Position numbers and translations under genes: made by a program. A stretch of DNA of 40,470 nucleotides from Escherichia phage GA2A, in the sequence record NC_031943.1. The stretch is one strand, 5' to 3'. Positions 898-40,470 of the stretch are shown piece after piece. A model generated the notes under the pieces. It had not been told where the DNA came from and searched no databases. It worked only from the letters and a program-made list of their open reading frames with translations. The stretch's first letter is position 1, and each line of letters starts with the position of its first letter.

Positions 898-1074
898 ATG
901 AAAATCATAGCGATGAACGAAGAACTGGGCGTAATCTGGTACACGGCTACCGACTATAAATATCGCACTAAGCATGTGATAATCTACGGATTGACTAAGA
1001 CTGAGCACCAGAGCCGCAAGCAAGCGCAGGACGAGTTCAATAAGTGCCTGGACCATGCGTTCAACTGCCGGTGA
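898..1074 (+). CDS. Hypothetical early protein, 58 aa (first early ORF)
   Basis: ATG at 898 to TGA at 1072-1074; below the 60-aa track cutoff; preceded by conserved 22-bp leader repeat 860-881; no recognisable homolog. Confidence 0.35.
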   Translation: MKIIAMNEELGVIWYTATDYKYRTKHVIIYGLTKTEHQSRKQAQDEFNKCLDHAFNCR

Positions 1075-1137
1075 TTAACTACAGGTCGTTAACTCATAGC
1101 GGCCTGACTGATAGTCACTAACTATAGGATAAACAAG

Positions 1138-1662
1138 ATGAAACTGATAGGTAAAGGCGCGTTCACTAAATGCTACCTGAAGGATTGCGGGAGGCGTGTA
1201 ATTCTGGTCTCTTCTGACCCGATAAAAGAGTGTATGGCGTGGGGATGGTTCCCTGAGTCTCCACTGTTCCCTGAAGTCAAGATGATTGAGGTTGGCACGT
1301 ATGAGATGGACTACATGCCACCAACACGGGGTCTCAAGGCGCATTTAGATGATGACCAGTGGCAGCTCTATCAGGTGCTGCGTGATTGCTTCGCATGGTC
1401 TCCGGTATTCTCTCGACCTGATGACCTGTATCACAAGTGGTACGAGATATTCCAAGCTGCACACGACAGGTCCGAGACTGAGACTGTGCGGGAAGGTCTG
1501 ATGGATGTGCTGATGGCTCTGGATGCTTGCGCTAACTTCGGGTCTGATATTCAGTTTGAGATAAGCCCGCGCAATGTACGGGCAGTGAATGGTAAGCTGA
1601 TACTAGTGGATTGCTTCTTCCTTGTGTCCAAGCTGCAAGAGGTGAGGTCATCAAGATGGTAA
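1138..1662 (+). CDS. Protein kinase-like early protein, short gp0.7-like kinase domain only
   Basis: 174-aa ORF; N-terminal GKGAFTKCY resembles the Gly-rich loop GNGHFSAAY of T7 gp0.7; C-terminal SPRNVRAVNGKLILVDCFF resembles its catalytic segment; lacks the C-terminal shut-off domain. Confidence 0.5.
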   Translation: MKLIGKGAFTKCYLKDCGRRVILVSSDPIKECMAWGWFPESPLFPEVKMIEVGTYEMDYMPPTRGLKAHLDDDQWQLYQVLRDCFAWSPVFSRPDDLYHKWYEIFQAAHDRSETETVREGLMDVLMALDACANFGSDIQFEISPRNVRAVNGKLILVDCFFLVSKLQEVRSSRW

Positions 1663-1811
1663 CTTATGGTCTCTGCAAGCACTACGTCACCAACGCCCGG
1701 ATTATGGTCAAGACCGGGCAGATAAACCACGATGAGGCTATGCGTCTCCTGAAAGCGATCTATAAAGGCCGCAAGCGCATACACGACAGCTTACACTCTG
1801 AGGACAAGTAA
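1656..1811 (+). CDS. Hypothetical small early protein, 51 aa
   Basis: Internal ATG of track ORF 1611-1811 with RBS GAGGTGAGG upstream; start overlaps stop of previous gene (ATGGTAA). Confidence 0.3.
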   Translation: MVTYGLCKHYVTNARIMVKTGQINHDEAMRLLKAIYKGRKRIHDSLHSEDK

Positions 1812-1813
1812 AC

Positions 1814-1939
1814 ATGTACCAGATAACTTATAGCAGTGAACAGGCGTTCTACGATGGGTGCTACGAGATGATGAAGCGCGGTGCTTGCTACGTGGCTAAT
1901 CACCATAGCCTGACCATAACTTTGACGGGCGGATACTAA
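1814..1939 (+). CDS. Hypothetical small early protein, 41 aa
   Basis: ATG at 1814 directly after previous stop; TAA at 1937-1939; weak RBS. Confidence 0.2.
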   Translation: MYQITYSSEQAFYDGCYEMMKRGACYVANHHSLTITLTGGY

Positions 1940-2015
1940 CTGCGAGTGATAGACGAGAGGCCATCGACTGATAGGTGGCCTCAAAGATTACCACTTAAAT
2001 TGATAGGAGTTAACT

Positions 2016-2105
2016 ATGAGTGTGGGATATTGGGTTTGCCTAGCACCGGTTATCTTGATGATAGGCTATGGGATATATGACTGTATTAAACGGAAATCAC
2101 TATGA
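2016..2105 (+). CDS. Hypothetical small hydrophobic protein, 29 aa
   Basis: RBS AGGAG 7 nt upstream of ATG; hydrophobic core VCLAPVILMIGYGIY resembles the next ORF. Confidence 0.25.
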   Translation: MSVGYWVCLAPVILMIGYGIYDCIKRKSL

Positions 2106-2299
2106 GTCTTGCACTATTGATAGCCATAGGCTATGGACTTATCGCATACGTGCTGGTGATAGACATCAACAAAGCGCGTAAAGTCTACAAATTCAACTAT
2201 GTACGTCTGGGCCGCTGGACTGTACGTCAACCTAACGGACGATTCATGCGCAACTTAGCGAACGTCTGGGATATAGCAACACTTGGGAGCAAAATGTAA
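2102..2299 (+). CDS. Hypothetical small membrane protein, 65 aa
   Basis: Track ORF; N-terminal hydrophobic segment LALLIAIGYGLIAYVLVI; start overlaps previous stop. Confidence 0.4.
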   Translation: MSLALLIAIGYGLIAYVLVIDINKARKVYKFNYVRLGRWTVRQPNGRFMRNLANVWDIATLGSKM

Positions 2300-2625
2300 T
2301 GAACAAGTCTTACGGGATTAATCTGGTACACTCTATGGCCGCAGAAATGAACATGTTAAGCCTACTGGCTACAGGGTATCGCCACGGAACGTCCTCACAC
2401 ACCGAACGTCAACAGCAGGAGCGAGATCGTGTACTTCAGGCAAGACTCCGGGCCGAGGGCCATAAGTCCGAGCTAATGTGTCTGGCGTATGGTGGACAAC
2501 CAATCACTGACGATGGGAAACTTTTGGTCTCAGGCTGGAAGGCGATAGACCAACGGTCAGCCATCAAGCACACGACTCATGGTGACTTCAGTCATCTTCA
2601 CGCTAACCCACTGATATGCAAGTGA
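2299..2625 (+). CDS. Hypothetical early protein, 108 aa
   Basis: Track ORF; ATG overlaps previous stop (ATGTAATGA); immediately upstream of the RNAP gene. Confidence 0.45.
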   Translation: MNKSYGINLVHSMAAEMNMLSLLATGYRHGTSSHTERQQQERDRVLQARLRAEGHKSELMCLAYGGQPITDDGKLLVSGWKAIDQRSAIKHTTHGDFSHLHANPLICK

Positions 2626-2722: not shown

Positions 2723-5404
2723 ATGAGCGTCATCTCTATTGACAAACATGACTTCTCTGATGTGTCGAACGCTATTGAGCCGTTTAACCTGCTGGCAGAC
2801 CACTACGGGCAAGACCTTGCAGTCAAACAACTTCAGCTTGAGCATGAGGCATACACTGAAGGCGAGCGACGTTTCATCAAGAACCTTGAGCGTCAGACTG
2901 AGCGCGGGGAACTGGCAGACAATCAGGTAGCTAAGCCTCTTATGCAGACTCTGGTCCCTAAGATTGCGCAAGCTGTCAAGGAGTGGCATGAAGGTCCAGA
3001 CGGGAAGCTGTCAACCTCTCGTCCGAGCGTAGCGTTCACCATGTTGAGCACTGAAGAGAAGGCCGTCAAGGACCGCTCTCTGCGCATCTCCTGTGAGTCT
3101 GCTGCGGTTATTATACTGAAGGTCATCCTCTCCAAGCTGGTCAAGCCTGAAGGGATACCGATTACACCAATGGCCTCCGCGATAGGGCGCACACTTGAGG
3201 ATGAAATCCGCTTCGGTCGCATCCGTGACAAGGAGCAGGAGCACTTCAAGAAGGCAATAGCTGAGAACCTGAACAAGCGGGCTGGGGCATCCTACAAGAA
3301 AGCCTACATGCAAGCGGTTGAGACCTCCATGCTGGAGCAAGGCCAGCTTGAAGATGCGTGGGGAACTTGGAGTCCGACCGAGGCTGTCCACGTTGGAATC
3401 AAGATGCTTGAGATTGTCATCCAGTCAACGCAACTGGTCGAGCTTAAGCGCTACGGTGCTGGCAATGCAGCGACTGACGTCGAGATGGTCCACCTGTCAG
3501 ACTTCTGGGTCAAGAAGATGGCACAACGAGGATTCAGCCTTGCGGGTATCGCTCCAGTCTACCAACCTTGCGTCGTGCCACCTAAGCCGTGGACTGGTGT
3601 AGTAGGCGGTGGGTACTGGGCCAAAGGTCGCAGACCGTTGCCATTGATTCGCTTAGGGTCTAAGTCTGCGGTGGCACGTTATGAAGATGTGTACATGCCT
3701 GAAGTATACGACGCTGTTAACATCATCCAGAATACACCTTGGAAAGTTAACAAGAAGGTGCTGGACGTGGTGAATATGGTCGAGAAGCTGAATAACACGC
3801 CTATTGACGACATCCCTCAGATGGAACCACTGAAGCCTGAAGACTATGCGGGAGAGACTGAAGAGGAACTCAAGGCATGGAAGAAAGCTGCTGCTGGTAT
3901 CTATCGCCGCGAGAAGGCCAGACAGTCACGCAGGTTGTCACTGAGCTTTATCGTTAACCAAGCGAACAAGTTCTCTCAGTTCAAGGCCATATGGTTCCCG
4001 TATAACATGGATTGGCGAGGCCGTGTCTACGCTGTCCCTATGTTCAACCCTCAAGGTAACGACATGCAGAAGGGTCTCCTGACTCTGGCAGTCGGCAAGC
4101 CTATTGGTGCTGACGGTTTTAAATGGCTGAAGGTCCACGGTGCAAACTGTGCGGGTGTTGATAAAGTCACCTTCGAGGAGCGCATCAAGTGGGTGGAAGA
4201 CAACCACGACAACATCATGACTGCTGCTAAGGCACCGATGGATAGCATTGAGTGGTGGGGCAAGTTAGACTCTCCGTTCTGCTTCCTAGCGTTCTGCTTC
4301 GAGTATGCTGGCGTAATGCACCACGGACTGTCCTACAACTGCTCGCTACCGATAGCGTTCGATGGGTCCTGCTCTGGTATTCAGCACTTCAGCGCGATGC
4401 TTCGTGACCACATCGGTGGACATGCAGTAAACCTGACGCCATCCGGTAAGGTACAGGACATCTACCGCATCGTATCTGACCGCATTGAGGAGGAGCTTAA
4501 AGTCCTGCTGATTAACGGTACGGACAACGAGATGGTAACGCACGAGGACAAGAAAACTGGTGAGATTACCGAGCGTCTCAAGCTGGGGACAAGAGAGCTG
4601 GCCCGTCAGTGGCTGACCTACGGTATGTCACGCAAGGTAACTAAGCGTTCGGTCATGACTCTGGCCTATGGGTCGAAAGAGTATGGCTTCGCAGACCAAG
4701 TTTACGAGGACATCGTGATGCCAGCGATTGACTCAGGGTCTGGCGCTATGTTCACTGAACCAAGCCAGGCGTCTCGCTTCATGGCTAAGATGATTTGGGA
4801 AGCAGTGAGTGTGACCGTAGTTGCTGCGGTTGACGCGATGAAGTGGCTTCAAGGTGCTGCCAAGCTGCTGGCTGCTGAAGTGAAGGACAAGAAGACTGGA
4901 GAAATCCTGAAGCCTTGCCTTCCAGTGCACTGGGTCACACCTGATGGTTTCCCTGTCTGGCAGGAATACCGCAAGAAGGATACCACTCGTCTTAACCTGA
5001 TGTTCTTAGGGTCGTTCAACCTTCAACCTACGGTCAACAAAGGGTCGAAGAAAGAGCTGGATAAGCACAAGCAGGAGTCCGGTATCAGCCCTAACTTTGT
5101 ACACTCACAGGACGGCAGTCACCTGAGGAAGACTGTGGTCCACACCCACAGCAAGTATGGCGTGATGTCCTTCGCGGTGATTCACGATAGCTTTGGGACT
5201 ATCCCTGCTGACGCTGAGTTCCTGTTCAAGGGTGTCCGTGAGACGATGGTCGAGACCTACCGCGACAACGATGTGCTGCAAGACTTCTACGAGCAGTTCG
5301 CGGACCAGCTTCACGAGACCCAGCGCGACAAGTTGCCTGAGTTACCGAAGCGCGGTAAACTGAACATCGAAGACATTCTGTCATCTGACTTTGCATTCGC
5401 CTAA
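2723..5404 (+). CDS. 1: T7-like single-subunit DNA-dependent RNA polymerase
   Basis: 893 aa versus 883 aa for T7 RNAP; C-terminus SSDFAFA matches the T7 RNAP C-terminal FAFA; conserved polymerase-core segments in the middle. Confidence 0.97.
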   Translation: MSVISIDKHDFSDVSNAIEPFNLLADHYGQDLAVKQLQLEHEAYTEGERRFIKNLERQTERGELADNQVAKPLMQTLVPKIAQAVKEWHEGPDGKLSTSRPSVAFTMLSTEEKAVKDRSLRISCESAAVIILKVILSKLVKPEGIPITPMASAIGRTLEDEIRFGRIRDKEQEHFKKAIAENLNKRAGASYKKAYMQAVETSMLEQGQLEDAWGTWSPTEAVHVGIKMLEIVIQSTQLVELKRYGAGNAATDVEMVHLSDFWVKKMAQRGFSLAGIAPVYQPCVVPPKPWTGVVGGGYWAKGRRPLPLIRLGSKSAVARYEDVYMPEVYDAVNIIQNTPWKVNKKVLDVVNMVEKLNNTPIDDIPQMEPLKPEDYAGETEEELKAWKKAAAGIYRREKARQSRRLSLSFIVNQANKFSQFKAIWFPYNMDWRGRVYAVPMFNPQGNDMQKGLLTLAVGKPIGADGFKWLKVHGANCAGVDKVTFEERIKWVEDNHDNIMTAAKAPMDSIEWWGKLDSPFCFLAFCFEYAGVMHHGLSYNCSLPIAFDGSCSGIQHFSAMLRDHIGGHAVNLTPSGKVQDIYRIVSDRIEEELKVLLINGTDNEMVTHEDKKTGEITERLKLGTRELARQWLTYGMSRKVTKRSVMTLAYGSKEYGFADQVYEDIVMPAIDSGSGAMFTEPSQASRFMAKMIWEAVSVTVVAAVDAMKWLQGAAKLLAAEVKDKKTGEILKPCLPVHWVTPDGFPVWQEYRKKDTTRLNLMFLGSFNLQPTVNKGSKKELDKHKQESGISPNFVHSQDGSHLRKTVVHTHSKYGVMSFAVIHDSFGTIPADAEFLFKGVRETMVETYRDNDVLQDFYEQFADQLHETQRDKLPELPKRGKLNIEDILSSDFAFA

Positions 5405-5416
5405 GGAGGCAACCTA

Positions 5417-5617
5417 ATGAAATTCGCACACAAAATCACTAACGTAGAAGGTGGTAATAAGCTGGTAACTGTGACCGAGAACAACGGTAAGGCGCTGGTC
5501 AAGATGACAATGATTCCAGCCGGGACAGCAAAGCGCGTGGGTCTCACCCAGAAGGAGCTGGTCCAGAACGTCCAGTGGTCCCACGAGAAGTCACTCGAAG
5601 CCGAGGCAGCAAAATGA
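5417..5617 (+). CDS. Hypothetical protein, 66 aa
   Basis: Track ORF with strong RBS AAGGAGG before the ATG. Confidence 0.5.
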   Translation: MKFAHKITNVEGGNKLVTVTENNGKALVKMTMIPAGTAKRVGLTQKELVQNVQWSHEKSLEAEAAK

Positions 5618-5691
5618 CAGACCTGAAGTGGCTGGCCTTATGGCTGGCTTTCCTAGCGGTGTATACCTTAATCCAACGCAGAAGAGGTTAA
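5614..5691 (+). CDS. Hypothetical small hydrophobic peptide, 25 aa
   Basis: ATG overlaps previous stop (ATGA); sequence MTDLKWLALWLAFLAVYTLIQRRRG. Confidence 0.2.
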   Translation: MTDLKWLALWLAFLAVYTLIQRRRG

Positions 5692-5695
5692 CCCT

Positions 5696-6169
5696 ATGTT
5701 CTTTAACTCCGCACTGAAAGCACGCATCGCAGAACTTGAACTCCACCTGAAGAACAGCGAGGAGCTGAACAACCATAAGTCAGCGACCATTGATAGCCTA
5801 CGGGCTGAGAAGACCAAGCTGGTGGACCGAGTGTCCTACCTTCAAGGCAAGAAAGCGCCAATCAAGGTTAAGCGGATGGTCGGACTGAAGTTCCGGGCGC
5901 TGTTAAACGGCCTCTATCAGCCTACCGAGTTCAAGACCGGGCCGGGCAACTGTGGGAAGAACGTTAAGCACTTCACTGTAACAAAGACCGACCGCACCCT
6001 GACCATCCACCAGCACCACGTTGACGACTCTCAGAAAGACTTCGAGTACCGACTGAGTGACATCGACGGTCGCATCCAGTATGACTATGAGATGGTGCAG
6101 GTTTACGGTGAGGAGGCAGAACAAGAGCGAGCACTTCAGGCGATGATTAGAAGACCACGCTTTGCCTAA
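5696..6169 (+). CDS. Hypothetical protein, 157 aa, N-terminal coiled-coil-like
   Basis: Track ORF; RBS AGAGG; its stop TAA is the first three bases of the next phage promoter; lies where T7 has its replication origin. Confidence 0.55.
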   Translation: MFFNSALKARIAELELHLKNSEELNNHKSATIDSLRAEKTKLVDRVSYLQGKKAPIKVKRMVGLKFRALLNGLYQPTEFKTGPGNCGKNVKHFTVTKTDRTLTIHQHHVDDSQKDFEYRLSDIDGRIQYDYEMVQVYGEEAEQERALQAMIRRPRFA

Positions 6170-6189
6170 ACTATCACTATAGGATTAGA
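6167..6189 (+). promoter_or_regulatory. Phage promoter (phi1.1 position)
   Basis: TAAACTATCACTATAGGA. Confidence 0.8.
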
Positions 6190-6228
6190 CTCAAGGTCAT
6201 GACTCAAAGTCGTGGCCTTCATGATTAA
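6186..6228 (+). promoter_or_regulatory. Conserved hairpin element, probable RNase III processing site (R1.1 position)
   Basis: TAGACTCAAGGTCAT...GTGGCCTTCATGATTA; one of three copies (also 13136-13186 and 37256-37298) at positions matching T7 R1.1, R3.8 and R18.5. Confidence 0.55.
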
Positions 6229-6253
6229 CCCTAAACTCAATCAGGAGCTACAC

Positions 6254-6433
6254 ATGTATCAGAACACCGTAAACTTCGAGCGCATCCGTGAACGTCAGCA
6301 GACTGAAGGATACATGCCGAAGGGCCGCAAGCTGAACAAGACTAAACGTGGCGGTGGCGTGAAGGGTGCTTTCCGTAACGCTGAGGGTAAAGACTCTCTG
6401 GTCAACCAAGAGAAGTATTTCGTAGGAGCGTAA
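6254..6433 (+). CDS. 1.1: gp1.1-like small basic protein
   Basis: KGRKLNKTKR matches T7 gp1.1; start taken at the ATG with RBS AGGAG rather than the track start 6212, which lies inside the hairpin element. Confidence 0.7.
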   Translation: MYQNTVNFERIRERQQTEGYMPKGRKLNKTKRGGGVKGAFRNAEGKDSLVNQEKYFVGA

Positions 6434-6436
6434 GAC

Positions 6437-6724
6437 ATGGGCATGTTCTCAAGAGCACATAGTGGAAACCTGAACACCCTGCGTAAGGCCATCCACAACT
6501 GGCAGTCCGAGACCGACTATAACGCAGTGGTCAGCACTTGGTTTGACCCGGTGATGAACAGGCAATGCGTCAGGGCGGGTATAGTCCACATTCATACACG
6601 AGAGGTCCTCATTGAGAAGGACTTCACGGAGTACCCGAATATCCACGACGAAGATGTGCAGACCGTAGCGGTTGCCACTTGGTTTAACAAACAGTTCAAC
6701 GACTACACTGGTAGATTCCTTTAA
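6437..6724 (+). CDS. 1.2: gp1.2-like protein (T7 gp1.2 is an inhibitor of host dGTPase)
   Basis: 95 aa; N-terminal MG....SGNL resembles T7 gp1.2 MGRLYSGNL; conserved position. Confidence 0.7.
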   Translation: MGMFSRAHSGNLNTLRKAIHNWQSETDYNAVVSTWFDPVMNRQCVRAGIVHIHTREVLIEKDFTEYPNIHDEDVQTVAVATWFNKQFNDYTGRFL

Positions 6725-13135: not shown

Positions 13136-13186
13136 TAGACTCAAGGTCATTCACATCGAGTGACCTTTATGATTAGACTAAACGGA
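13136..13186 (+). promoter_or_regulatory. Conserved hairpin element, probable RNase III site (R3.8-like position)
   Basis: TAGACTCAAGGTCAT...GTGACCTTTATGATTA; second copy of the element. Confidence 0.55.
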
Positions 13187-13195
13187 GGATTAATA

Positions 13196-14068
13196 ATGAA
13201 GGTTCTAAGTCTGTTTGATGGAGTTGGTGGTGGATATCAAGCACTACGGCTTGCCGGGGTCCAAGTCTCTTCATACATCTCTTCAGAGATAGAAAAGAGC
13301 AGTATAAACATAGCAGCCCGTCATATACCTGACTACTTAAACCTAGGTGATGTTAGAGGGGTAAGAGGTGGTGACTACGACTTAATACTTGCCGGGTCTC
13401 CATGTCAAGGCTTTTCGTATGCAGGGAGGGGGCTTAACTTCAGTGATCCGCGCTCCTCACTCTTCTTCGAATTTGTCAGAATAGTCAGAGAATCATTAAT
13501 CTTTAACCCTGATGTTAAAATCTTCTTAGAGAACGTAAATATGCGTAGGGAGTGGAAGGATGTCATAACGTCAGAGCTGGGAATCAATCCAGTAGAAATA
13601 TGCGCATCCACATTATCACCTTTCCGTAGAAACCGATTATACTGGTTCAACTGGGAGTCAGCACCTGAAATAAAGACTGTCAGTTTCAAGGAGCTAACTG
13701 GTGGTTTACCATGTAGTATAGTTGGTAGACCACTTGACGAGAACCTTAAGAGGGTAGACGGAAAAGGCCTTCCGGTGGTTCAATGCATAGAGGTTACAAA
13801 TGGGGATATTGGAAGATGTGTAACTACGGTATCAAAAGACTCATGTGTATACCTAGGGGCTAATAGACCTCCGTCTAGAATACCTGATGCATATGGGGCT
13901 AATCGTAACTTATGGAGAGACCTTACTATATCCGAGCTGGAGGTGGGGCATGGGTATGACAGTGGGTTTTTTGATAATGTCAAGGAATCTACCGCCAGAA
14001 AGGCCATAGGAAACGGATGGAGCTTACAGGTTGTTTCTAGCATATTTAGAGGGCTAAACCATGTTTGA
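13196..14068 (+). CDS. DNA (cytosine-5)-methyltransferase, orphan
   Basis: Ordered C5-MTase motifs: I LFDGVGGG, IV GSPCQGFS, VI FLENV, VIII FRRNRLYWF, X IGNGWS; start at ATG 13196 with RBS GGAGG; visibly AT-richer than flanks; not present in T7. Confidence 0.85.
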   Translation: MKVLSLFDGVGGGYQALRLAGVQVSSYISSEIEKSSINIAARHIPDYLNLGDVRGVRGGDYDLILAGSPCQGFSYAGRGLNFSDPRSSLFFEFVRIVRESLIFNPDVKIFLENVNMRREWKDVITSELGINPVEICASTLSPFRRNRLYWFNWESAPEIKTVSFKELTGGLPCSIVGRPLDENLKRVDGKGLPVVQCIEVTNGDIGRCVTTVSKDSCVYLGANRPPSRIPDAYGANRNLWRDLTISELEVGHGYDSGFFDNVKESTARKAIGNGWSLQVVSSIFRGLNHV

Positions 14069-40273: not shown

Positions 40274-40470
40274 ATCTCACAGTTCAAGAACCTCAAGTCT
40301 CCCCATAGGCCCTCTTTCAGTCCAGACCAAAGGCCCTACCCCAGTCTATCATAAGGTTAGACCGATGGTCAAGACTTCAGGTCAACGATAGGTTGTGGCT
40401 ATTGGTGGTGGTGGAGACGATAGGTTGGGACTATTGGTGGTGGTGGAGACGATAGGTTGGGACTATTGGT
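40274..40470. repeat. Right direct terminal repeat plus one extra partial tandem unit
   Basis: 40274-40438 identical to 1-165; 40439-40470 repeats the preceding unit GGTGGTGGAGACGATAGGTTGGGACTATTGGT. Confidence 0.85.

Follow-up and report, generated by a model that had tools for sequence, protein, structure and literature searches.

A minimal protein-kinase-like gene in the gene 0.3 (Ocr) slot of Escherichia phage GA2A encodes a candidate counter-defence enzyme

The window analysed here is the whole 40,470-bp stretch of Escherichia phage GA2A (sequence record NC_031943.1). It comprises the complete genome of a T7-like phage that belongs to the K1F group, genus Kayfunavirus. We found that the gene 0.3 slot of its early region, which carries Ocr in many sister phages, is filled by a gene for a protein of 174 amino acids (aa) with a predicted protein-kinase-like fold, referred to here as the mini-kinase. 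The exchange of Ocr for the mini-kinase is a clean cassette replacement that extends from a shared leader and stem-loop to the start codon of the following gp0.4-like gene. By analogy with known phage kinases, the mini-kinase might be an active early phosphotransferase that modifies host proteins for counter-defence, a reading to which we give an even chance of being right. A preliminary description of positions 898 to 2625, made from the sequence alone, had put the 174-aa protein forward as an anti-defence candidate. This was reasonable, and because the mini-kinase sits exactly at the place of Ocr in sister phages, the support for it is stronger than was known at the time.

The mini-kinase gene is an exact cassette alternative to Ocr

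The features involved in the exchange are given below, where SAMase stands for the S-adenosylmethionine (SAM) lyase, T7K for the kinase gp0.7 of phage T7, and numbers with the prefix L for individual loci.

1138 to 1662, + strand: mini-kinase, a predicted minimal protein-kinase-like enzyme in the gene 0.3 (Ocr) slot; 174 aa, pI 5.4
1072 to 1137, + strand: conserved stem-loop and leader, upstream boundary of the Ocr/mini-kinase swap; -17.2 kcal/mol, z = -3.05
826 to 897, + strand: conserved leader element (…GGCCCTGACTGATAGTCACTAAC…) and stem-loop ahead of the 58-aa gene; weak, z = -0.8
SAMase-type slot, in 6 of 25 loci: T3-type SAMase with a T7K-like kinase of 244 aa that has no shut-off domain

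We compared the window with 24 related loci (25 in total). Annotated relatives and the 108-aa gene served as anchors for collecting these loci, and every early gene was mapped in them by local tblastn. The slot just upstream of the gp0.4-like gene contains Ocr in 13 loci, the mini-kinase in six (the window, SD6, ZG49, SH4, L010, and ST31), and SAMase together with a T7K-like kinase in the other six. None of the 25 loci contains two of these three alternatives. The pairing of SAMase with a short T7K-like kinase has also been tabulated for Enterobacter phage B1 (PMC12785254).

DNA alignments locate both junctions of the swap. Upstream, the loci share the conserved leader and stem-loop (…GGCCTGACTGATAGTCACTAAC) and homology ends at the ribosome-binding site; downstream, homology restarts at the ATG of the gp0.4-like gene. 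Positions 1072 to 1137 are homologous to the Ocr leader of L007 and Peacock up to …GATAGTCACTAAC and are divergent beyond this point. The leader elements at 826-897 and 1072-1137 are paralogues, and a leader of approximately 45 nt, CTACAGG…GGCC(C)TGACTGATAGTCACTAAC, stands before the 58-aa gene, before the mini-kinase, and before Ocr in relatives. The element at 826-897 appears to resemble the RNase III sites that separate the early genes of T7 and T3, and the 45-nt leader may serve both as an RNA processing site and as a recombination substrate for shuffling of early cassettes.

At the level of the genus the mini-kinase is dispensable, since most Kayfunavirus loci examined lack it. In ZG49 (L008/L032, positions 1310-2359) a full mini-kinase gene is followed by a truncated gp0.4-like fragment, by a second piece encoding mini-kinase residues 71-174, and by a full gp0.4-like gene; this partial tandem duplication has the look of a scar left by recombination at the junction of the swap. 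Kayfunavirus SD6 and SH4, as well as Klebsiella Molineuxvirinae phages, contain a 62-aa gene (PHROG 336, …YWNDYTDSLCKSGMISKHQYNTWSNPF) directly upstream of the mini-kinase (both genes together at 1300-2026 in L001, 934-1655 in L009, 2770-3513 in L029, and 2609-3309 in L033), and the two may form a conserved module. The 62-aa gene is absent from the window, where the 58-aa gene stands at this place.

Ocr (gene 0.3 of T7 and K1F) and T3 SAMase share the slot and its exact junctions with the mini-kinase, and all three are first-expressed early genes. However, they are unrelated in sequence, fold, and presumed mechanism: Ocr mimics DNA as an acidic protein, SAMase breaks down SAM, and a kinase-like active site characterises the mini-kinase. 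The mini-kinase was rejected as a form of Ocr given its lack of sequence homology to it, its pI of 5.4, and its predicted kinase fold.

The absence of Ocr and SAMase had been noted in the preliminary description. We queried the whole window by tblastn with Ocr of T7, K1F, Peacock, and EPr2, with T3 SAMase, and with gp0.7 of T7 and T3. Consistent with the earlier statement, Ocr, SAMase, and gp0.7 have no match in any frame of the window (best E=0.24); the four Ocr queries gave E>0.4 everywhere in it and the T3 SAMase query reached E=0.34 at best. These negative results are meaningful because the same queries readily find homologues in sister genomes, and the T3 SAMase query finds genes of 62-64% identity in six sister loci. 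A small, strongly acidic open reading frame (ORF) is likewise absent from the window.

The mini-kinase family has a conserved active site and a predicted kinase fold

The mini-kinase family corresponds to PHROG 11084 and includes 155 close relatives, and a profile search found 751 clusters in metagenomic sequences (50% identity, E <= 1e-3). Nearly all members are stand-alone proteins with a median length of 173 aa. We computed conservation over 265 diverse members, to which all frequencies given here refer. Within the glycine-rich loop (G5-x-G7-x-F9), G7 is present in 99%. The pair K30-E31 is near-invariant (K30 in 98%), and in the catalytic loop, F140-E141-I-S-P-R-N146, E141 is found in 100% and N146 in 99%. 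The window protein then has D158-C159-F160, at which the family has D158 in 99%, C or V in the middle position, and F160 in 97%. The E-x4-N spacing equals that of kinase catalytic loops, and the N-x11-D spacing is one residue shorter than the N-x12-D of T7K and protein kinase A.

We modelled the mini-kinase with AlphaFold2 using the family alignment and obtained a predicted local distance difference test score (pLDDT) of 96.1 and a predicted template-modelling score (pTM) of 0.89. The succession of elements in the model fits a kinase N-lobe followed by three helices, the catalytic loop with the metal-binding Asp after it, and a single helix at the end. The model has the bilobal protein-kinase-like (PKL) fold, i.e., an N-lobe of β-sheet plus helix and a helical C-lobe with the catalytic loop, and it has neither an activation segment nor a substrate-docking C-lobe. 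Foldseek comparison with the PDB returned almost only kinase-like structures, led by APH(2'') (E 5e-4) and followed by RAF, Rio, CK2, CDK2, and choline kinase. The two leading BFVD matches were a member of the mini-kinase family and a 212-aa protein of an Acinetobacter phage (uncharacterised; E 4e-7, TM-score 0.70). The named matches after these were T7K-type kinases, with E values of 9e-6 to 1e-4: A0A7L7SMK1, which is a divergent T7K homologue according to PMC13645617, a Klebsiella phage NahiliMali protein kinase, and a kinase-like protein of Ralstonia phage RSB1.

Sequence profiles of the mini-kinase found no match in Pfam, NCBIfam, PADLOC, or a PDB profile search. The Pfam result is uninformative, since T7K itself receives no kinase match in the same Pfam copy. 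The protein had earlier been described as kinase-like and without a shut-off domain, with structure prediction asked for as a check. The predicted fold is kinase-like and supports the first part, together with the conserved motifs, and the C terminus, which lies 16 residues after D158 and leaves out a shut-off domain, agrees with the second.

Minimal effector kinases of bacteria differ from the mini-kinase. NleH1/2 and OspG are enterobacterial type III secretion effectors and not phage proteins, and they have no detectable sequence similarity to the mini-kinase. They contain the canonical Asp and β3 Lys, and OspG requires an E2~ubiquitin partner.

The mini-kinase is not a member of the T7K family

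T7K and JSS1_004 (PHROG 2828/PF27024) are, like the mini-kinase, products of early genes upstream of gene 1. Both are proven broad anti-defence enzymes that act by phosphorylation, disabling retron-Eco9, DarTG, Dnd, and other systems (PMC13645617, PMC12345140). T7K-type kinases are also the nearest named viral proteins to the mini-kinase among predicted structures, and T7K shares with it a core of approximately 150 residues that extends from the Gly-loop to the metal-binding Asp without an activation segment. Within this core the T7K family has a DPV motif in place of DFG (PMC13645617), whereas the mini-kinase has DCF or DVF. The β3 Lys of T7K (VIKV) is replaced by Leu or Ile in the mini-kinase, and the catalytic-loop Asp of T7K by Glu. 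Furthermore, the mini-kinase lacks both the N-terminal extension of approximately 65 aa and the shut-off/DNA-binding domain of T7K.

At the sequence level, T7K and T3K queries found nothing at 1138-1662 by tblastn, and hhalign comparison of the mini-kinase with T7K gave a probability of 4-7% (P~0.005) in three tries with increasingly diverse alignments. The hhalign alignment is collinear, pairing IGKGAFT with LGNGHFS, FEISPRN with FDMHSGN, and LVD with ITD. Given the low hhalign probability, the relationship between the mini-kinase and T7K rests on fold and motif order only. The two also fall into separate PHROGs (the mini-kinase in 11084 only; T7K in 2828, 15752, and 18305), and PF27024 is present on T7K relatives but is annotated on none of the 120 mini-kinase relatives listed. 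We rejected membership of the mini-kinase in the T7K/gp0.7 family, as it has no hidden Markov model match, no DPV, no β3 Lys, and no shut-off domain.

The 244-aa T7K-like kinases of the SAMase-type loci (L012, L013, L018-L020, and L022) keep the DPV motif and have no shut-off domain (cf. PMC12785254). Loss of the shut-off domain is thus common in the Kayfunavirus-like clade.

The mini-kinase is essentially confined to phages and coexists with T7K or Ocr in some of them

We found the mini-kinase family in 82 records of the phage collection. The carriers include Kayfunavirus, Dickeya Aarhusvirus, Klebsiella Molineuxvirinae, the siphoviruses Seurat and VogelGryff (Bas25), Ralstonia and Cellulophaga phages, and Pseudomonas phages of 98 kb and 174 kb, and the family is spread over podo-, sipho-, and myovirus-type genomes. 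Two Dickeya Aarhusvirus records annotate the protein as a "serine/threonine kinase". Among 185,579 bacterial and archaeal species, each represented by one genome, there were two matches, both on short contigs of metagenome-assembled or single-amplified genomes; the family is essentially confined to phages. Our literature search, which took in work on Kayfunavirus early genes, the Silas et al. accessory-gene screen, and the EVADES catalogue, found no paper on the family, and this search did not cover the supplementary homologue list of the T7K paper.

The gene neighbourhoods of the mini-kinase were compared across 38 IMG/VR loci. In 13 of them a T7-type RNA polymerase gene follows 1-4.3 kb downstream on the same strand. 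The early locus of Dickeya phage Mysterion contains, in this order, the mini-kinase, a gp0.6A-like gene, a small ORF, a full-length gp0.7 homologue, and the RNA polymerase gene, and neither Ocr nor SAMase is present there. The gp0.7 homologue has 352 aa and is 34% identical to T7K, C-terminal part included. Dickeya phages thus have the mini-kinase at the 0.3 position together with a true T7K. In another four of the 38 loci, which belong to an unrelated lineage (L050, L052, L053, and L054; contigs of 9-141 kb), the mini-kinase lies approximately 0.8 kb downstream of Ocr. Since the mini-kinase coexists elsewhere with each of them, it is redundant with neither T7K nor Ocr.

The Ocr proteins of these four loci are 55-65% identical to those of K1F and T7. 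On one strand, at approximately 3900-6500, these loci have first a gp0.6A-like gene and two small ORFs and then Ocr, an acidic 116-aa ORF, a 51-aa ORF, and the mini-kinase. The 116-aa ORF is very acidic, ends …LEDLESELEEAEENEE, and is possibly a second DNA mimic; the whole run of genes is a candidate anti-defence island.

This distribution bears on whether the mini-kinase is a host-takeover kinase that acts on housekeeping targets (RNA polymerase, RNase E/III, or translation factors) and has no specific effect on immunity. Redirection of housekeeping functions is the role classically ascribed to T7 gp0.7, with which the mini-kinase shares fold class and early position, and its presence in phages of very different hosts fits a target conserved across bacteria. 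However, Dickeya phages carry it next to a gp0.7 homologue of full length, so that it is not just a substitute for gp0.7, the slot it occupies belongs to two dedicated anti-restriction genes, and its absence from most Kayfunaviruses is the pattern of an accessory arms-race gene. We consider a pure takeover role rather unlikely.

Proposed role of the mini-kinase

In the counter-defence reading, the mini-kinase would be made in the first minutes of infection as a nucleotide-dependent phosphotransferase and would attach a covalent modification to at least one host protein. The likeliest targets would be components of DNA-targeting defences, or factors on which such defences depend. Their modification would shield the incoming genome, the same job that Ocr performs as a DNA mimic and SAMase as a SAM lyase. 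The phosphorylation route would parallel that of T7K and JSS1_004, which are unrelated to the mini-kinase in sequence. Its target set probably differs from those of T7K and Ocr, because it coexists with each in some phages. Catalysis, a protein substrate, and an anti-defence role are all inferred here. A more specific version can be put forward only tentatively: the mini-kinase may be a Glu-based, lysine-shifted transferase with a minimal kinase fold that covalently inactivates Type I/III restriction-modification, BREX, or similar complexes of DNA surveillance, or a cofactor of theirs, and so takes over the function of Ocr and SAMase at the gene 0.3 slot. Chemistry or targets different from those of T7K would explain why some phages carry both.

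Several observations weigh against a counter-defence phosphotransferase. The acid of the catalytic loop is an invariant Glu (E141) instead of Asp, and the β3-Lys position (position 23) is L, I, or V in 263 of the 265 members, with K30 located seven residues further on at a helix start, so that ordinary kinase chemistry cannot be taken for granted. The top PDB matches are small-molecule kinases of the aminoglycoside phosphotransferase (APH) type, at a TM-score of approximately 0.4. The fraction of Ser, Thr, and Tyr is 0.160 in the proteins encoded before gene 1 compared with 0.155 in the rest of the genome, and the early proteins of GA2A are thus not depleted in these residues, although this is a weak test because these early genes are shared with relatives that have no kinase. 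In phages with the hyper-promiscuous Ser/Thr/Tyr kinase T7K, early proteins are depleted in them. As shown by its coexistence with them in other lineages, the mini-kinase is not simply equivalent to T7K or Ocr, and mutual exclusion within Kayfunavirus could stem from cassette geometry and not from shared function. The argument from gene position is circumstantial, and the function given here for the family is a predicted one.

The unusual active site also invites two other explanations. In one of them, a phosphotransferase for small molecules or nucleotides, or another nucleotidyl-type transferase, would be built on a kinase scaffold and would act on a metabolite, a cofactor, or an immune second messenger instead of proteins. 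Aminoglycoside, corramycin, macrolide, and choline kinases head the Foldseek PDB matches, the catalytic-loop Glu and the absent β3 Lys hint at non-canonical chemistry, and the missing activation segment and substrate-docking C-lobe point the same way. APH and choline kinase (ChoK) structures give the best PDB E values to the mini-kinase (5e-4 to 3e-3) and, like it, have extra helices between hinge and catalytic loop. However, the root-mean-square deviation is approximately 16 Å over the global alignment, and the mini-kinase is approximately 120 residues shorter and lacks the helical substrate-binding subdomain that follows the DFG-equivalent. We regard a small-molecule transferase as unlikely.

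The other explanation is a pseudokinase that has lost catalysis and acts through binding: it might sequester a host protein or nucleotide, serve as a decoy, or require nothing but its shape. The Glu at the catalytic-base position, the loss of the VAIK-type lysine, the very small size (174 aa), and the failure of sequence profiles to recognise a kinase would all fit. Against this, the positions that are invariant among the 265 members are those that bind nucleotide and metal (GxGxF, K30, E141, N146, and D158), i.e., the signature of an active site, and T7K, a proven kinase, is missed by the same Pfam copy. We therefore view a pseudokinase as improbable.

The early block contains seven genes, of which two are variable cargo

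We found that the early block at 898-2625 contains seven genes, not five. The five ORFs listed earlier are real and have the coordinates 898-1074, 1138-1662, 2016-2105, 2102-2299, and 2299-2625; overlooked were two genes of 51 aa (1656-1811) and 41 aa (1814-1939). Besides the mini-kinase, the block has the following features.

898 to 1074, + strand: 58-aa basic protein, pI 8.6, rare accessory early gene; PHROG 20418, E=3e-37
1656 to 1811, + strand: 51-aa homologue of T7 gp0.4; its ATG overlaps the mini-kinase stop
1814 to 1939, + strand: 41-aa conserved early protein rich in Ser/Thr/Tyr (32%); PHROG 33188
1937 to 2015, + strand: strong stem-loop between the 41-aa and 29-aa genes; -24.2 kcal/mol, z = -4.5, stability reached by none of 200 shuffles
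2016 to 2105, + strand: 29-aa hydrophobic, single-pass membrane-type peptide (...LMIGYGIY...); grand average of hydropathy (GRAVY) 0.95
2102 to 2299, + strand: 65-aa membrane-type protein of the T3 gene 0.6/K1F '0.6' family (...AIGYGLIAY...); PHROG 2385
2299 to 2625, + strand: 108-aa basic core early protein, always directly upstream of gene 1; PHROG 7066

Several of these ORFs are very short (29-58 aa), and stable stem-loops occur in the region, as would be expected if the small ORFs were chance reading frames within a mostly leader or regulatory RNA. In addition, the 58-aa ORF could be compared with a single close relative, in which an excess of third-position changes is not clear. However, PHROG families match six of the seven ORFs, all except the 29-aa ORF, and every one of these PHROGs is labelled "unknown function". 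An excess of third-position changes is present in six of the seven ORFs (homologues from 6-24 related loci), and the order, overlaps, and lengths of the early genes are kept across the 24 related loci. In the mini-kinase gene, differences from homologues number 136 at position 3 compared with 34 at position 1 and 20 at position 2, and 130 synonymous versus 49 non-synonymous codon changes indicate purifying selection. Our data make chance reading frames highly improbable.

The 51-aa protein aligns with T7 gp0.4 with an hhalign probability of 90.7% (E=1.3e-6; 39% identity over 41 columns), and both have reciprocal PHROG cross-hits to 5058, 7202, and 25044. As in T7, the gene directly follows gene 0.3, the stop of which overlaps its start. 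A gp0.4-like gene is present wherever Ocr or the mini-kinase is present in the 25 loci. The gene evolves fast: its homologues in 19 loci have 201 non-synonymous and 77 synonymous codon changes, and it has more first- than third-position differences, the opposite of all neighbouring genes. T7 gp0.4 is said to have been identified by Kiro et al. in 2013 as an FtsZ inhibitor, i.e., an inhibitor of cell division. The substitution pattern suggests that the gp0.4-like gene, a putative FtsZ inhibitor, may be under diversifying selection or relaxed constraint.

The 58-aa gene occurs in 12 phage records only, stands upstream of Ocr in L007, and encodes a protein with no match in Pfam, NCBIfam, PADLOC, or PDB. 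The 41-aa protein is 83-100% identical in 15 loci that cover all three early-region types, and third-position changes dominate in its gene. The stem-loop that follows it (1937-2015) would fit an RNase III-like processing site or an attenuator. Homologues of the 29-aa protein are found in 16 loci with a coding-type substitution pattern. The 65-aa protein is 94% identical to K1F 0.6 and 40% identical to T3 gp0.6 (E=4e-6, tblastn), and PHROG 2385 matches it with E=3e-31 and T3 gp0.6 with E=9e-30; its T3 homologue comes in the same order after gene 0.3. The EPr2 homologues of both the 29-aa and 65-aa proteins are annotated as transmembrane. The 108-aa gene is present in 25 of 25 loci, and the C-terminal approximately 55 residues of its product are almost invariant. 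The 108-aa protein has no match in PDB, Pfam, or NCBIfam, and we rejected the idea that it is a detached gp0.7 shut-off domain (hhalign probability 0.1%).

The IGYG motif that the preliminary description saw in the two adjacent hydrophobic proteins is present in both the 29-aa and 65-aa proteins but is not conserved in homologues: the 29-aa protein of Peacock has IAWG, and T3 gp0.6 lacks the motif. We rejected it as a sign of paralogy or function, and the sharing is probably incidental.

The 65-, 29-, and 41-aa genes are present in most of the 25 loci irrespective of the gene in the 0.3 slot. Because these genes and the 108-aa gene recur whichever slot gene is present, they are not Ocr substitutes; only the 174-aa and 58-aa genes are variable cargo. 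The earlier suggestion that all ORFs of the block are uncharacterised anti-restriction candidates in place of Ocr does not hold, since they include homologues of gp0.4 and T3 gp0.6 and other shared early genes. Overall, what that interpretation said of the missing Ocr and SAMase, the kinase-like protein, and its anti-defence candidacy stands, and the extension to every ORF falls.

Genome setting and a methyltransferase gene

The first 2.8 kb of the window are approximately 90% identical to 222 phage records, with Kayfunavirus as the best matches. The features outside the early block that bear on its expression, together with a methyltransferase, are as follows.

2723 to 5404, + strand: gene 1, T7-type RNA polymerase, 893 aa; anchor that defines the early region
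2633 to 2649, + strand: first phage-type promoter, TTAACTATCACTATAGG; closes the block read by host RNA polymerase alone
558 to 587, + strand: sigma-70-type promoter-like site, TTGACA-18-TAGTAT; consensus match 10/12
13160 to 14068, + strand: C5 cytosine DNA methyltransferase, 302 aa; PF00145, E=8e-24

The phage promoter consensus, TAAACTATCACTATAGG, has 11 copies in the genome compared with 0.05 expected by chance. A scan of the whole genome found no copy before 2633, eight bases past the end of the block at 2625. The block at 898-2625 is therefore a class I early block transcribed by host RNA polymerase only, in line with its earlier assignment to the early region. The promoter at 2633-2649 lies directly upstream of the phage's own RNA polymerase gene and would allow positive feedback on polymerase synthesis; at the equivalent place in T7, only the E. 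coli C promoter is annotated. The site at 558-587 is a candidate early promoter for the block, judged from its match to the consensus only; sigma-70-type sites are no more numerous in this region than expected from shuffling.

The first 165 bp of the window recur near its right end (1-165 and 40274-40438), consistent with a direct terminal repeat. The right-end copy is followed by approximately 32 more bases that partly repeat again. Just inside the left end, at 198-270, a perfect 16-bp tandem repeat, GTCTAACCAACCTACA, is present in 4.6 copies.

A methyltransferase elsewhere in the genome had been suggested to make up for the missing Ocr. The gene exists (13160-14068), between the helicase and DNA polymerase genes, in the kilobase with the lowest GC content of the genome (0.44). 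A close copy is found in one other phage record only, Salmonella phage Seyj3-1 (98.7%), and after it come genes of phi92-like myoviruses with 39% identity. This pattern suggests that the gene was acquired horizontally and recently, a rare event for T7-like phages. The mini-kinase is present in Seyj3-1 too, and the other mini-kinase phages examined lack the methylase; we therefore rejected it as a companion of the mini-kinase, the pairing being shared with Seyj3-1 only. Compensation for the loss of Ocr by the methylase is possible but not indicated.

Significance

Phage kinases have been recognised only recently as broad counter-defence weapons, namely T7K (Nature 2026) and JSS1_004, and both belong to one family. 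The mini-kinase would represent a second, sequence-independent family of kinase-like phage proteins that is smaller than any characterised phage kinase. Its unusual active site, with Glu for Asp and a relocated Lys, is of interest to kinase enzymology, and a compact enzyme of this type could be used to engineer therapeutic phages against restrictive hosts. Even if the mini-kinase turns out to be a plain host-takeover kinase, our data provide a useful annotation for approximately 750 protein clusters now labelled hypothetical. Within one genus, the mini-kinase is an exact allelic alternative to Ocr and is mutually exclusive with SAMase, and natural, isogenic-like controls exist in sister phages whose main difference is the slot gene.

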